From: Candidatus Omnitrophota bacterium
GTDB lineage: Bacteria; Omnitrophota; Gorgyraeia; Zapsychrales; Aceulaceae
Direction: 5' to 3'
Length of the DNA: 64,000 nucleotides
Assembly: GCA_029564765.1 (NCBI GenBank)
Contig: JAKQPK010000075.1
Span: 4,603-68,602, forward strand
Of the stretch, positions 35,701 through 37,874 are shown piece by piece (position 1 is the first letter of the stretch; each line of letters begins with the position of its first letter). A model generated the notes under the pieces. It had not been told where the DNA came from and did no database searches. It saw only the letters and a program-made list of their open reading frames with translations. Position numbers and translations under genes: made by a program.

Positions 35701-37572
35701 GCGATCAGCGACGCCGTCAATACCGCAACTCAAAGTTTTCAGTATGACGCCTTAAATCGTTTGATCTGCGCGCAGGGAAGTTACGGCACAAAATTCTTTC
35801 AATATGACAAGATCGGCAATATTCTGCAAAAAGACGGGATTACATTTACCTACGGGCAGAATGGAGCCGGGCCGCATGCCGTCACATCATTATCCGACGG
35901 GACAACATTCCAGTACGACGCCAATGGTAATATGAAAAAGAAAACGGATACCAATGGTGCTGTCTGGGATTATCTCTATGATGCGGAAAATCGTCTCATG
36001 GAAGTTAAGAAAAGCAACACGACGCAAGCCAAATTTTATTATGATGGGGACGGCGGCAGGGTCAAGCGTGTCAATTACGACAACGGCAGTATCGCCGTTG
36101 ACGATAATGTTGGGCTTTTTGATGTCTCAAGGTTTTCCTACGCGAAAAATTTGACGATCAGCAGCGTTCCTGCCGTAACGACAACAACGACAAAATATAT
36201 CGGTTCGCTGTATGAGGTCAATGGTTCTGCGCCCACACGTTACATTTATCTGGGCGATACGCGCGTGGCCCAAGTCCAAAGTGGTCAGGTAGTGTATTAT
36301 CACGGAGACCATCTGGGCGGGACCAATATCGTCACCAACAATAGCGGTGTCGTGAAAGAGCTGTGCGAATATCTGCCTTTTGGCGGGTTCTCGCGTCATG
36401 AAAAATATGGTAATAGCGCCGAGGTCGCGCATTTCTATTTTACAGGAAAACAGCTTGATGAGAAAACCGGGCTGTATTACTATGGAGCGAGGTATTATGA
36501 TTCCGCACTGGGGAGATTCTTAACCCCGGACTTTGTTGTTCAGAGTTCAGTTAATCCGCAGATGTTGAACCGATATTCGTATTGCGGAAACAACCCGGTC
36601 AATATTACCGACCCTACTGGGCATTTCTGGTTTTTTGCGGCTATTGCTGCTATTTTTAAAGCGGCGAGTGCTTATGCGGTGGCTCATCCGATCATCGCAG
36701 GAGCCGCAATGGGCGGATTTCTTGGCGGTGTCAACTCAGCAATTCAAGGGACAAATATCGCACAAGGCATTGGCCTTGGGATTTTAAGCGGATCCGTAGG
36801 AGGTGCCGTTGGCTTAGGAGTAGGAGATTTTCTTAGGGGAGGCGGCATAGGGAAGTTTTGGGCTGGCATGGCTGCGGCCGGGCTTGGCGGATCTACGGCA
36901 GGCGCGGCTGTCAGCGGCGTTATGGGATGGGACCCTGGAATGGGCGCGTTGGCTGGATTAGCAGGAGGTATTGCCGGTTTTATGGGCAGTTACAATGTTG
37001 CGCCTATTGCAGGTGATATTCTAGGCAGTGCCGCATCAGCGGCTGTTAGCGGAGGCAATATCGGCGACGCTGCCTTAGGAGGGCTCATGAACGGCGGGAT
37101 TTCTGCGACTGTTGAAATGATGTTGCCCGATCCGACTATCGGCGATCAGAAACCTCAAGCGGGTGACTTAATATTTTATGAAGGCGGCGCTGACCCTTCA
37201 GGAGCTGTTTTGGGCGCTATCCAAGGTGCTTCAAAAGGACATATTGCGATAGCGACGACTGACATAAGACAGGTAGATGCGCATATTAATGGAGGAGTTA
37301 AGGATCGCGCTATTGATTTTTCTCGTCAAGGCCGCGTTGTCAAATGGGCAGGTTCGGGAAATCAAAAATTCATAGCCCTTGCTGTTCAATACGGCAAAGA
37401 AAACAATATCAAGTATTGGCTAGGTCCTGGTAGAGAAATATGCTCTACTTTTGTTGGCCGAGTCGCTGGGCAAGCCGGTTTATCTGTGCCTGGGTTTAGC
37501 CCGTCCTCACAGTACAATAATATTCAAGGTATTCAATATCGTAATACGTATACTTATGGGGTGCAGAAATGA
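29731..37572 (+). CDS. Giant secreted RHS/YD-repeat polymorphic-toxin protein (TcB/TcC-like 'BC' fusion). Domains: SpvB-type N-terminal, FG-GAP/VCBS repeats, YD repeats, three internal novel ~135-aa repeats, RHS core, Gly-rich segment plus C-terminal toxin domain
   Basis: Signal peptide 'MNRSFGLAIVIFSLFVVAPVVVCASE' (ATG at 29731 with RBS 'gggagga'; the ORF-track start at 29713 is a TTG). SpvB motif 'SLSYNSSSPNGIAGMGWSLEFGRISR'. Six or more 'D(V/I/L)NxDGxxD(L/I)V' repeats. Many YD repeats ('YSYDSEGNLTQVQDALGN', 'YEYDPVGNLIWQKD'). RHS core end 'YYGARYYDSALGRFLTPD...RYSYCGNNPVNITDPTGHF'. Confidence 0.9.
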   Translation: MNRSFGLAIVIFSLFVVAPVVVCASENETAQGSQGSSLDTSEMTRAKEDQELLSRSKGPSSGQSSKTTLYTDKAFQSVEKLDVDPATGTATAEIPISVPSGRAGIQPAISLSYNSSSPNGIAGMGWSLEFGRISRSIKFGTPTYSASDKFVLAQAGSRQELVDVSGNGTLFRPEIEGAFMKIEFVSNSYWCLTDRKGVRYYFGQTNDSRVFDPSNSANVFEWCLDKVEDLYGNYMTISYMKDQSQIYPYQILYTGNSQNNLSPFAAVEFEFENRSDTMFSYFSKFLIRTEKRLCAVKVFVQGALQGKYQFSYTLSPMTQRSLLTAVTQYGADGVSSLPATVFSYQQSDKGFQAATGWTVPAGARFSEHQQGGRYADLGSRMVDVNSDGYPDIVKYHEYHGGGVTRETFLHDKNQSWVASPANWKFPTNLSNFLATAPEIDRGYGVSLADINGDGWVDLVRHFQDHPPANGGVITNQVFINNHLTGWNLDVNWPLPNDGVLPITWALGQPVYSYHEYTGNILDDVNGDGFTDYVKSKEEGWGPHTHMTFINNMPTANGWTYQSSWNTQASVYMDFAHGAVLLDLNGDNLKDVMYSKDGTKKVFINNGTTWVEDASSPWLNEFGYTNFNDGSTQCADINGDNLPDLIVSDDNSQKVLLNNGHGWVLDNSWVVPGNLKSNGAKLADVNADGMLDLVKHFNGNTPEVHINKGKVPDLLVAMDNGMGGIKEIVYDSACHYSNTFFPFAAQVVKTLTLSIGVGDSYTTTYDYANGFWNAEKRESRGFGYIKVLDPDGNYSETYLLQDDVYKGRIDRQENYNAVGQLFSKTVYQWNAQQLFSGVNFIYLAQKDDFIYDGNATGVRTQEKYFYEGSPQYGNLTKAVQLGKVDLLTGSDIEADKRSTETTYHNNVAGNNWLLGLPKEILSKDNASAQVRKTWFYYDGSNNINTVPTLGQLTKKELWGGSQPGAVNPVTEYAYDGYGNLLTTKDPNGHVSTITYDNDFYFFPLQVKNAKNHVVAKEYYGVNGIPLDNGAGYHGLWGQVRSIKDPNSQTGGKTYDTFGRLVATVSPLDSIAFPTTSVEYDLTSSGTKVITHQREAHGKPGTIDTVSFYDGLGRLIQSKSETGYMGQFVVSGQTEYNSRGLPQKKYLPRFTNTSITTADPIDTSVAHTTIAYDAMGRAVQTTNPDGTCATVIYDDLTTTAIDENGHKQASIVDAYGRFVQKQEYTGADGRSLYYPTQAYSLYTTTNYSYDSEGNLTQVQDALGNVTTISYDALGRKIAMDDPDMGYWEYEYDPVGNLIWQKDAKNQVITFTYDEINRLTNKTDGAALNVNYTYDATSLMPIEALADDDLQVLSASVNFSKSLSSLEGLPPAPPTMEPNYGIGRLTKASYPTADQSRFVYDVLGREKSSTKKIDTASYQVRRSYDAANRPIILSYPDQAKLIYTYNNAGQIDSVSEILPGNSLSSAKEEGGRIQDPARLDMKNFYNHRLKKSSPDIKQNILQYQNSFFHRKAGQQSQDKGEMKFLGPGGNITLTVNPLNPVRGVKQHYSLNVSWSGAYWENWQYSIFVALIGGSVYPPPLSSNPPGALNWSVSPPASWNGDQININTNSGSMTIVKELEAYASFNEFIWRAQLVCTPPWPGATYFPSFSQILVSAAPDPDIVLGVTPQSPHPAVLARYDFDISWSNLPMGNNYDYRLFYTLVENNTGSYYGAAQDPSTSNTWLGGDIDISDANASGNHISSKELVALSHCNGSLITSYRWMAQIRRVISGQAYDPHDPQTFYTVAEKTVEVQPGTGLNISLGMNYFRPIIDLEKQYEIAFSWSDLIPTFDDQNYDYKYYVTILDADSNFLAATTSSGQWWEEMGLITQAAPSTIAITKNLTVQNNDSSSANTDQFTWVGEIRRYPQGGSTIYDVLSTVTEAVNGKDLGSGIYVVDVRYSAAGQILEVEFGNNTRTTYTYDPNSLRLTQLVTKNVQNQSIQDFSYSYDSSGNIRAISDAVNTATQSFQYDALNRLICAQGSYGTKFFQYDKIGNILQKDGITFTYGQNGAGPHAVTSLSDGTTFQYDANGNMKKKTDTNGAVWDYLYDAENRLMEVKKSNTTQAKFYYDGDGGRVKRVNYDNGSIAVDDNVGLFDVSRFSYAKNLTISSVPAVTTTTTKYIGSLYEVNGSAPTRYIYLGDTRVAQVQSGQVVYYHGDHLGGTNIVTNNSGVVKELCEYLPFGGFSRHEKYGNSAEVAHFYFTGKQLDEKTGLYYYGARYYDSALGRFLTPDFVVQSSVNPQMLNRYSYCGNNPVNITDPTGHFWFFAAIAAIFKAASAYAVAHPIIAGAAMGGFLGGVNSAIQGTNIAQGIGLGILSGSVGGAVGLGVGDFLRGGGIGKFWAGMAAAGLGGSTAGAAVSGVMGWDPGMGALAGLAGGIAGFMGSYNVAPIAGDILGSAASAAVSGGNIGDAALGGLMNGGISATVEMMLPDPTIGDQKPQAGDLIFYEGGADPSGAVLGAIQGASKGHIAIATTDIRQVDAHINGGVKDRAIDFSRQGRVVKWAGSGNQKFIALAVQYGKENNIKYWLGPGREICSTFVGRVAGQAGLSVPGFSPSSQYNNIQGIQYRNTYTYGVQK

Positions 37573-37874
37573 AAAAAGCGCTTTATTTTTGTTTAGCATT
37601 TTTAATAACGGTTATGATTTACGGTTGTGCTACGGCCACAGAGATTACTTCCTCGAAAGGAACAATAAAAATCGGAATGACCAAGAATGAGGTTTTGACT
37701 TTGTGGGGGGAGCCTAGGCAGAGAACTCCTCCTGAAAAAGAAACATCGATAGCTTATAATGAAAATCGTTATGAATTTTTCACATATCCACCCCCGGGGT
37801 TATTTGGCAATAGTGTAATTGTTGCGTTCAACAAGGATGGCATAGTTACCGACATTGAAACTCTTTATAAATAG
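37569..37874 (+). CDS. Small lipoprotein with BamE/SmpA-OmlA-like fold. Candidate immunity protein for the upstream RHS C-terminal toxin
   Basis: Lipobox 'MIYGCAT', 'IKIGMTKNEVLTLWGEPRQ...FNKDGIVTDIE'. Its start overlaps the RHS stop (ATGA). Confidence 0.5.
   Translation: MKKALYFCLAFLITVMIYGCATATEITSSKGTIKIGMTKNEVLTLWGEPRQRTPPEKETSIAYNENRYEFFTYPPPGLFGNSVIVAFNKDGIVTDIETLYK

Follow-up and report, generated by a model that had tools for sequence, protein, structure and literature searches.

A predicted permuted NlpC/P60-like toxin tip with a glycine-zipper module and a BamE-like lipoprotein partner in an RHS locus of Candidatus Omnitrophota

What does a giant RHS protein from a candidate phylum carry at its variable C-terminal end, and what might be the role of the small lipoprotein whose gene overlaps its stop codon? 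These questions are raised by a 64,000-nucleotide (nt) stretch of DNA from a Candidatus Omnitrophota bacterium (GenBank assembly GCA_029564765.1, contig JAKQPK010000075.1, forward-strand positions 4,603 to 68,602), hereafter referred to as the window and numbered from its first letter. Therein, a gene encoding an SpvB/RHS shell protein ends in a hydrophobic Gly-rich module followed by an enzyme-like domain, with the two together forming the tip of the protein, and is immediately succeeded by a gene for a 101-residue lipoprotein (Table 1). Taken as a whole, the locus rather probably encodes a polymorphic-toxin cassette, in which a lipid-directed, permuted NlpC/P60 tip is paired with a BamE-like lipoprotein serving as its immunity protein. 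The tip and its pairing with this lipoprotein had been pointed out in an earlier, sequence-only reading of the same DNA, the claims of which are taken up below alongside the results that bear on them.

The tip: a permuted NlpC/P60-like domain behind a glycine-rich module

The enzyme-like domain spans ~150 amino acids (aa) and displays the motifs GDLIFYEGG, SKGHIAIATTD, VDAH, and REICSTFVGRV in this order, just as the sequence-only reading had described them. Positions are counted herein from V1 (nt 37111), with mutant-style residue numbers following those of the GenBank protein HOD12137.1. Across 15 homologues, some of which are ~27% identical, G18, D19, H44, A91, Y102, C111, S112, T113, G128, and P131 are invariant, with C111 constituting the sole cysteine of the 322-aa tip. 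The His thus precedes the Cys in the sequence (His44 ... Cys111), i.e., in the order that marks circularly permuted enzymes; a canonical, nonpermuted NlpC/P60 domain was ruled out, as the single Cys of the tip comes after the His.

Structure prediction and profile comparison both bear on the fold. AlphaFold supplied with a 3-sequence alignment yielded a predicted local distance difference test (pLDDT) score of 34, and the AlphaFold2 (AF2) model obtained from a 17-sequence alignment reached a pLDDT of 80.2 and a predicted template-modelling score of 0.79. In the latter model, His44 is found within β-strand 42-48 and helix 111-121 begins with Cys111, a hallmark of papain-like enzymes. When the model was compared with the PDB via Foldseek, the top meaningful matches were all circularly permuted NlpC/P60 enzymes, namely B. 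cereus BcPPNE (3kw0; probability 0.99) and E. coli YiiX (2if6; template-modelling [TM] score 0.56, root-mean-square deviation 3.7 Å, 128 columns), with human HRASLS3/H-REV107 (4dot and 7c3z) also among them. The best matches in BFVD were viral proteins labelled "permuted papain-like amidase, YaeF/YiiX, C92" (probability 1.0, E values down to 1.6e-4, TM scores up to 0.63). By hhalign, the family profile was collinear with E. coli YiiX over 119 columns (P 6.4e-4), with H44, H58, and C111 of the toxin domain pairing with H49, E64, and C128, i.e., the catalytic residues of YiiX according to Xu et al. (PMC3142127). The His half of YaeF was also matched (probability 87.6), with YiiX and YaeF compared separately since MAFFT misaligned the YaeF Cys region. 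Tyr115 of YiiX falls in a gap of the hhalign alignment, so its equivalence with the invariant Tyr102 is something that we infer. The permuted NlpC/P60 (YaeF/YiiX/LRAT-type) fold put forward by the sequence-only reading is thus well supported by the predicted model and by these comparisons.

Per-member scans of the relatives against Pfam returned matches to NLPC_P60 in 6 of 15 members (best E 2.5e-4), to Peptidase_C92 in 2 of 15 (E 0.009-0.03), and to LRAT in one further member, all of them below threshold (best bit scores of 19, 14.7, and 14 relative to gathering cutoffs of 23, 27, and 24.3, respectively). In a profile search of the PDB, the top four matches were all NlpC/P60 proteins; a second, insignificant HMMER segment aligned the C-terminal CST of the domain with the N-terminal catalytic CSG of NlpC/P60 proteins, thereby viewing the permutation from the other side. 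As the curated Pfam threshold is missed, the domain is therefore regarded as a family of its own, new to the permuted branch of the NlpC/P60 superfamily.

This family is a small one. Two relatives were recovered by a k-mer-seeded single-sequence search of 5.8 billion clusters, and HMMER, run exhaustively over 1.84 billion representatives, gave 12 matches, 11 of them genuine and all of these with the Gly-rich-plus-enzyme architecture and a Gly-rich or RHS linkage; P0016 was rejected as a repeat-protein artefact. A later profile search enlarged the toxin set to about 16 clusters. Overall, the family numbers some two dozen clusters in 15 billion proteins. A scan of 185,579 species genomes with the close alignment A1 had as its only match the L001 contig, from an Omnitrophota metagenome-assembled genome (MAG) of Lake Tanganyika. 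All named members come from Candidatus Omnitrophica/Omnitrophota MAGs, with the remainder being metagenome contigs. Those relatives that are long enough (P0010, P0011, P0012 [2607 aa], P0013, P0018, P0019, and P0020 [2365 aa]) carry an RHS core and the Gly-rich module ahead of the enzyme domain.

The Gly/Ala-rich segment itself, which the sequence-only reading had put at ~170 residues and likened to a glycine zipper, comprises 179 aa, of which 24% are Gly, 20% are Ala, and just 11 are charged. Only the start that the sequence-only reading gave for its finding as a whole needs correction, as position 36620 falls inside the Gly codon of the preceding DPTGH motif; the remainder of the features are as described. 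The module contains 17 GxxxG motifs and 38 small-xxx-small-xxx-small triplets, i.e., the repeated GxxxG pattern of glycine-zipper pore formers. Moreover, members with catalytic domains that are only ~27% identical keep the module at 185-205 aa and share its G.GALAGLAGG motif, and the idea that this stretch is a mere low-complexity linker was rejected on account of this conservation. A glycine-zipper reading of the segment fits both its composition and its conservation, and the module is always coupled to the permuted NlpC/P60-like enzyme.

The linked lipoprotein and its partners

Annotated as "hypothetical" in GenBank, the 101-aa product of the next gene begins with a signal peptide and lipobox (MKKALYFCLAFLITVMIYG-C), with the Cys in question (Cys20, nt 37626-37628) being invariant in 9 homologues. 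By itself, it matches Pfam BamE at 7.8e-4 and 19.6 bits, under the cutoff of 23.2 bits; across the family, DUF2845 (best 1.6e-6) and BamE are matched by 9 of 9 members. Run against the PDB, the family hidden Markov model also matches BamE chains across residues 27-95 (E 3.9e-4), as well as BLIP (5.5e-3), a protein inhibitor of an enzyme. Both the ATGA overlap of the two genes and the BamE-like character of the product, as proposed from the sequence, were recovered.

A housekeeping BamE identity was rejected for this protein: its homologues amount to just seven clusters in 5.8 billion (58-100% identical), and each context that could be read places a toxin homologue immediately before the lipoprotein gene (L004, L005/L006, L007-L010, L015, L016, and the L001 orphan described below). 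The pairing recurs in 8 independent contexts, with the two frames either overlapping or 1-6 nt apart; outside these readable contexts, on the P0008 contig, a gene upstream of the lipoprotein overlaps it by 4 nt. Between the window and L001, the toxin domains are 64% identical and the lipoproteins 42% identical. In L004, a tip 81% identical to that of the window is followed by two tandem BamE-like lipoprotein paralogues (689-1003 and 1052-1357), which may reflect an extra "orphan" immunity gene. Such linkage, tandem duplication, and covariation with the toxin typify the immunity genes of interbacterial polymorphic toxin systems. The sole gene linked to the toxin is this soluble-domain lipoprotein, with no integral-membrane gene so linked in the window or in the L-loci examined. 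Given the strict genomic linkage, the lipoprotein is most likely the immunity protein of the cassette, with neutralisation of the toxin predicted; the contrary possibility, of a lipoprotein that is broadly conserved and unlinked to RHS loci, was examined and did not correspond to what was found.

Variation within the family extends to both partners. In L001, the order of genes is that for a 23S rRNA intervening sequence protein (IVP), a 2745-aa SpvB/RHS protein, a 111-aa lipoprotein, a REP-associated tyrosine transposase (RAYT; Y1_Tnp), an orphan toxin, and a lipoprotein. The toxin genes matching that of the window in L001 and L011 are 5′-truncated orphans downstream of another RHS tip; each keeps the whole enzyme domain and has lost most of the Gly-rich module. 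The L001 orphan retains its adjoining lipoprotein, and the L011 contig ends at the toxin stop. The main L001 tip (gene at 755-8992) likewise belongs to this family as a divergent member, with a Gly-rich module and then GDPVFY...FNHTD...VYCSQF, and is followed by the 111-aa lipoprotein (9019-9354), for which there was no match in Pfam, BamE included; one toxin family thus appears to use more than one type of immunity protein. The arrangement recurs in L017 and L018 with "distant-subfamily" tips, each followed by a lipoprotein with a GMTKD.VRASWGE motif, one of the two matching BamE weakly. Within the RHS loci of Omnitrophota, the polymorphic tips of this family and their matching lipoproteins thus undergo exchange and displacement.

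Table 1. Features of the locus, in positions of the window
Feature	Position	Strand	Basis or remark
Permuted NlpC/P60-like cysteine hydrolase/acyltransferase domain, new family	37162..37569	+	AF2, Foldseek, BFVD, hhalign, sub-threshold Pfam
Predicted catalytic His44 (His2504 in HOD12137.1), codon	37240..37242	+	Invariant in 15 homologues; aligned to YiiX His49
Asp56-Ala-His58, candidate third, His-orienting residue	37276..37284	+	His58 paired by hhalign with YiiX Glu64
Invariant Tyr102, candidate NlpC/P60 signature tyrosine	37414..37416	+	9 residues before the Cys
Predicted catalytic Cys111 (Cys2571 in HOD12137.1), codon	37441..37443	+	Invariant C-S-T; aligned to YiiX Cys128
Glycine-zipper hydrophobic module, 179 aa	36625..37161	+	Composition and conservation; no Pfam match
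101-aa BamE/DUF2845-like lipoprotein, predicted cognate immunity protein	37569..37874	+	Start overlaps toxin stop (ATGA)
Giant shell protein gene	29731..37572	+	GenBank ATG start, 2613 aa plus stop, HOD12137.1
Predicted Sec signal peptide MNRSFGLAIVIFSLFVVAPVVVCA	29731..29802	+	Inferred from reading the translation
C-terminal RHS/TcC end motif, R-Y-Y-D (YYGARYYD) ... NNPVNITDPTGH	36490..36624	+	Motif conserved in homologues
REP-associated tyrosine transposase (RAYT/IS200-like)	38114..38641	+	REP_Tyr_transpos 3.1e-24 (NCBIfam), Y1_Tnp 1.1e-15 (Pfam)
Four-helix-bundle "23S rRNA intervening sequence protein"	28776..29222	+	Pfam 23S_rRNA_IVP 4e-18, TIGR02436 8.5e-22

Carrier, proposed action, and alternative readings

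The tip is borne by a protein that matches HOD12137.1 exactly, labelled in GenBank as an "SpvB/TcaC N-terminal domain-containing protein" of a Candidatus Omnitrophota MAG; the open frame as such (29713..37572, + strand) starts with TTG and comprises 2619 aa. Matches well above the Pfam cutoffs were obtained for RHS_repeat (1.3e-44, nine repeats), SpvB (1.7e-29), TcdB_toxin_midN (2.2e-21), and FG-GAP_3 (1.3e-14), and the combination of these domains therefore identifies HOD12137.1 as a fused TcB/TcC-type shell protein, i.e., a cocoon. The DPTGH within its end motif NNPVNITDPTGH is encoded at nt 36610-36624, and downstream of this conserved motif the tips vary among relatives, as they do in RHS/TcC polymorphic toxins. 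By analogy with these, aspartyl self-cleavage at DPTGH would be expected to free a ~32-kDa tip inside the shell.

Mechanistically, the cassette might operate as follows. The Sec signal peptide would export the giant protein, which would fold into a TcB/TcC-like RHS cocoon, cleave itself at DPTGH as TcC and Rhs proteins do, and retain the ~320-aa tip inside. The glycine-zipper module (~180 aa) may then drive the tip into the target membrane or anchor it thereon, positioning an enzyme with a predicted active site made up of His44, Asp56 or His58, Tyr102, and Cys111. The most likely substrate for the latter would be an acyl linkage in membrane lipids or lipoproteins, attacked in the manner of a phospholipase A or acyltransferase via a Cys acyl-enzyme. 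In the producer and its sibling cells, the cotranslated 101-aa lipoprotein, held on the periplasmic face of the membrane, would neutralise the enzyme by direct binding. Of these elements, the domain make-up, the fold class, the conserved residues, the linkage of toxin and lipoprotein, and the orphan cassettes are what the analysis shows, whereas self-cleavage, membrane insertion, the lipid substrate, and inhibition by binding are put forward conditionally. HRASLS and LRAT proteins are phospholipase A/acyltransferases; this activity, the hydrophobic pockets of permuted members, and the phospholipase activity of the toxin Tox-Act1 are the reasons for favouring lipid chemistry. Permuted NlpC/P60 members possess hydrophobic S1 pockets, and YiiX binds fatty acid (PMC3142127). 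The coupled glycine-zipper module and the membrane-anchored BamE-like protein would both fit with action at the membrane surface from the periplasmic side.

The same architecture and immunity could also be imagined around a peptidoglycan amidase or endopeptidase that lyses its targets, akin to the Tae effectors (Tse1, Tae4) of type VI secretion systems (T6SS). Most bacterial NlpC/P60 enzymes and Tae toxins do cut peptidoglycan, the family's strongest sequence-profile matches fall on the His region of canonical NLPC_P60, Spr/MepS, and 7cfl, and a periplasmic lipoprotein as immunity protein would suit a cell-wall target just as well. We nonetheless consider this unlikely: the topology is permuted, the best structural matches are to permuted lipid-associated members instead of Spr or Tae, and an obligatory hydrophobic glycine-zipper module suggests a site of action at the membrane. 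Permuted members with hydrophobic pockets and lipid activities have moreover been documented (PMC3142127, PMC12994826).

Another possibility is that the module is the real toxin, acting as a pore former or ionophore in the manner of Tse5-CT, the ionophores of contact-dependent inhibition (CDI) systems, or EsxX, with the NlpC/P60 domain confined to an accessory role in processing or anchoring. Its 17 GxxxG motifs in 179 hydrophobic residues would favour such a function, and Rhs, CDI, and type VII secretion system carriers are known to bear glycine-zipper toxins that depolarise membranes. This would be very unlikely given that the orphans keep the full enzyme (with its lipoprotein, in the case of L001) and lose most of the zipper, that the His, Tyr, and Cys of the predicted active site do not vary, and that no integral-membrane immunity gene of the pore-former type is linked. 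Exceedingly improbable, in our view, is a Tc-type BC component directed against eukaryotic cells; the lipoprotein would in that case either be a release factor or be an envelope protein with no connection to the toxin. The SpvB, TcdB_midN, and RHS domains do make up a TcB/TcC architecture, and LRAT/HRASLS-type enzymes act on eukaryotic lipids; yet there is no TcA gene in the window, and the lipoprotein accompanies the toxin even in the displaced L001 orphan, covaries with it (42% versus 64%), and is tandem-duplicated in L004.

Returning to the lipid-directed toxin-immunity cassette, several observations weigh against it. (i) None of the sequence methods attains a curated threshold: the tip searched directly against Pfam, NCBIfam, and PDB sequences gave no match, and the window domain compared with PF05708 (Peptidase_C92), PF04970 (LRAT), and PF00877 (NLPC_P60) gave nothing at E ≤ 10. 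(ii) Foldseek matches in the PDB have weak E values (8.5e-3 at best) and TM scores of 0.49-0.56. (iii) Only within the close subfamily do Asp56 and His58 never vary, with Ser, Ala, or His occupying the column in distant members; work on LRAT cited in PMC3142127 indicates that this third polar residue may be dispensable. (iv) The evidence does not directly discriminate between a lipid and a peptidoglycan substrate. (v) The lipoproteins of L001 (111 aa) and L019 (144 aa) lack a BamE-family match. (vi) TcA-type domains were absent from the ten large or neighbouring window open reading frames (ORFs) scanned, and no PAAR, VgrG, or other T6SS genes were found within the window; the lack of any such delivery partner there leaves the route of the tip to its target cell unexplained.

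Placed beside the stand-alone permuted enzymes of the YaeF/YiiX type, the window domain has the same order of elements (a GD-x-x-F strand, the His strand, a candidate polar residue, a candidate signature Tyr, and Cys at a helix N-terminus), but differs in having a shorter Tyr-Cys loop, and an Asp or His in place of Glu as the candidate third residue. It is also fused behind a glycine zipper on an RHS carrier, whereas YaeF/YiiX-type proteins are a housekeeping lipoprotein or secreted enzyme. LRAT/HRASLS enzymes (H-REV107) share the permuted core, account for the structural matches 4dot and 7c3z as well as the one weak LRAT match in a relative, and provide a model for acyl-enzyme chemistry; unlike the toxin, they are membrane-anchored metabolic enzymes of eukaryotes, and sequence similarity to them is undetectable beyond the His strand.

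Among toxins, a close point of reference is the antibacterial Tox-Act1 of Salmonella, reported in 2026 as the first characterised permuted NlpC/P60 toxin, a periplasm-acting phospholipase that requires its His and Cys; this T6SS effector is paired with Imm-Act1, an immunity protein with two transmembrane helices (PMC12994826). Tox-Act1/Imm-Act1 and the TseH clade resemble what is predicted for the window cassette in their permuted core, extracytoplasmic action, dependence on His and Cys, and immunity gene located immediately downstream. In contrast, the window toxin has an SpvB/RHS shell with a Sec signal, a 180-aa glycine zipper preceding the enzyme, and a BamE-like lipoprotein lacking a transmembrane pair. 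With no T6SS genes in the window, and with HMMER relatives that are exclusively Gly-rich/RHS-linked, the family is set apart from the Tox-Act1 clade by description.

TcB-TcC and Rhs cocoons (Photorhabdus TcdB2-TccC3, Yersinia YenBC, and Tse5) have in common with the shell the SpvB domain, FG-GAP propeller, TcdB_midN, RHS shell, DPxG motif, and variable tip of ~30 kDa, as well as displaced orphan tips with immunity genes downstream. The window protein differs in that its B and C parts are fused within one Sec-signal protein without a TcA, PAAR, or VgrG partner in the window, and the L001 and L011 orphans differ in being cut inside the tip beside a RAYT, without an RHS core stub. As for the lipoprotein, the sections of the 2025 Lipocone study drawn on here describe membrane-anchored, BamE-like immunity proteins that accompany polymorphic toxins targeting lipid head groups (PMC12419801). 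These are likewise small, rapidly evolving, and adjacent to periplasm- or membrane-acting toxins; however, those sections describe them with Lipocone and colicin M-like toxins and do not mention a pairing with permuted NlpC/P60 domains. The view in the sequence-only reading that such a pairing had not been characterised holds for this particular family, but not for its kind, given Tox-Act1 (PMC12994826) and the aforementioned BamE-like immunity proteins.

Genomic surroundings and meaning of the cassette

In each of the five loci that extend far enough (window 38057-39538, L001 9467-10001, L011 1224-2010, L004 1431-2021, and L017 11109-11777), a RAYT gene, 28-44% identical between loci, adjoins the toxin/immunity cassettes. 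The orphan toxins of L001 and L011 are cut inside the Gly-rich module just past the RAYT stop. Flanking the RAYT of the window are 19-nt inverted repeats (38057-38075 versus 38635-38653 and 38666-38684) and a perfect 31-nt tandem duplication (38628-38689), with a 61-nt direct repeat (89%) located at 38057-38117 and 39478-39538. From the layout of these genes and repeats, RAYT-linked rearrangement of cassettes is suggested. An orphan module in L017 (9558-10621) and L018 (9483-10621) keeps an RHS core stub (GLYYYGARYYNP...DPTGL) and is split across two ORFs; a frameshift has probably turned this displaced tip into a pseudogene.

Many Omnitrophota are thought to be ultra-small predators or parasites of other microbes. 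We would regard it as quite unlikely, though worth stating, that the cassette is a weapon specific to this lineage, in which a self-inserting zipper would carry a lipid- or lipoprotein-deacylating enzyme from the RHS cocoon into the membrane of prey without TcA or a T6SS, and in which the RAYT-type single-strand transposase at the cassette breakpoints, as opposed to homologous recombination in the RHS core, would reshuffle the tips.

Within the shell, residues ~1453-1928 (about 34090-35517 in the window) form a ~475-aa mid-RHS stretch that has neither a Pfam match nor a counterpart in the L001 orthologue; an internal triplication of this insert (a three-fold "...SWS..." repeat) was rejected, as BLAST self-comparison shows no self-similarity. 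Pfam matches of the L001 orthologue include Laminin_G_3 and PT-HINT. A 23S rRNA IVP gene is positioned directly upstream of the SpvB/RHS gene in three Omnitrophota genomes (window, L001 238-633, and L017 1052-1399), with no similarity detectable by BLASTP between the window and L001 copies. Further upstream in the window, positions 27146-28789 encode a 547-aa protein that contains BNR/Asp-box motifs and weakly resembles F510_1955-family glycosyl hydrolases. Between the lipoprotein and RAYT genes, a short ORF (37968-38078; MNGIKLGNTLRRLRKDRQLSLSEVSKVSGTPQTFLCKNL) resembles the truncated N-terminus of an XRE-type helix-turn-helix regulator. A 185-aa lipoprotein of the CC0125/CC1285 family (38767-39324; NCBIfam 3.3e-31) is encoded between the two copies of the 61-nt direct repeat. 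Both the neighbouring SerRS gene and the 101-aa lipoprotein ORF belong to the same MAG as HOD12137.1.

RHS polymorphic toxins, permuted NlpC/P60 toxins, and BamE-like immunity proteins are each already known. New are (i) a toxin family that lies outside Pfam and NCBIfam, with its obligatory glycine-zipper fusion, (ii) the pairing of a permuted NlpC/P60 domain with a BamE-like lipoprotein, and (iii) a Sec-signal TcB/TcC-type carrier without a visible partner. If the reading is confirmed, the toxin domain and its pairing, neither of which these databases cover, would mark an annotation gap. Current ideas are not overturned by this locus, as it is routine to find RHS tips that bear a new toxin domain beside an immunity gene.

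Ultimately, were the proposed reading to be true, the cassette would represent an independent family of lipid-directed permuted NlpC/P60 toxins beside Tox-Act1, originating from a candidate phylum without cultured representatives, and would extend BamE-like lipoprotein immunity to another toxin fold. The ~320-aa tip together with its 101-aa lipoprotein would thus offer a compact system in which to study the role of a glycine zipper in delivering an enzyme to a membrane.

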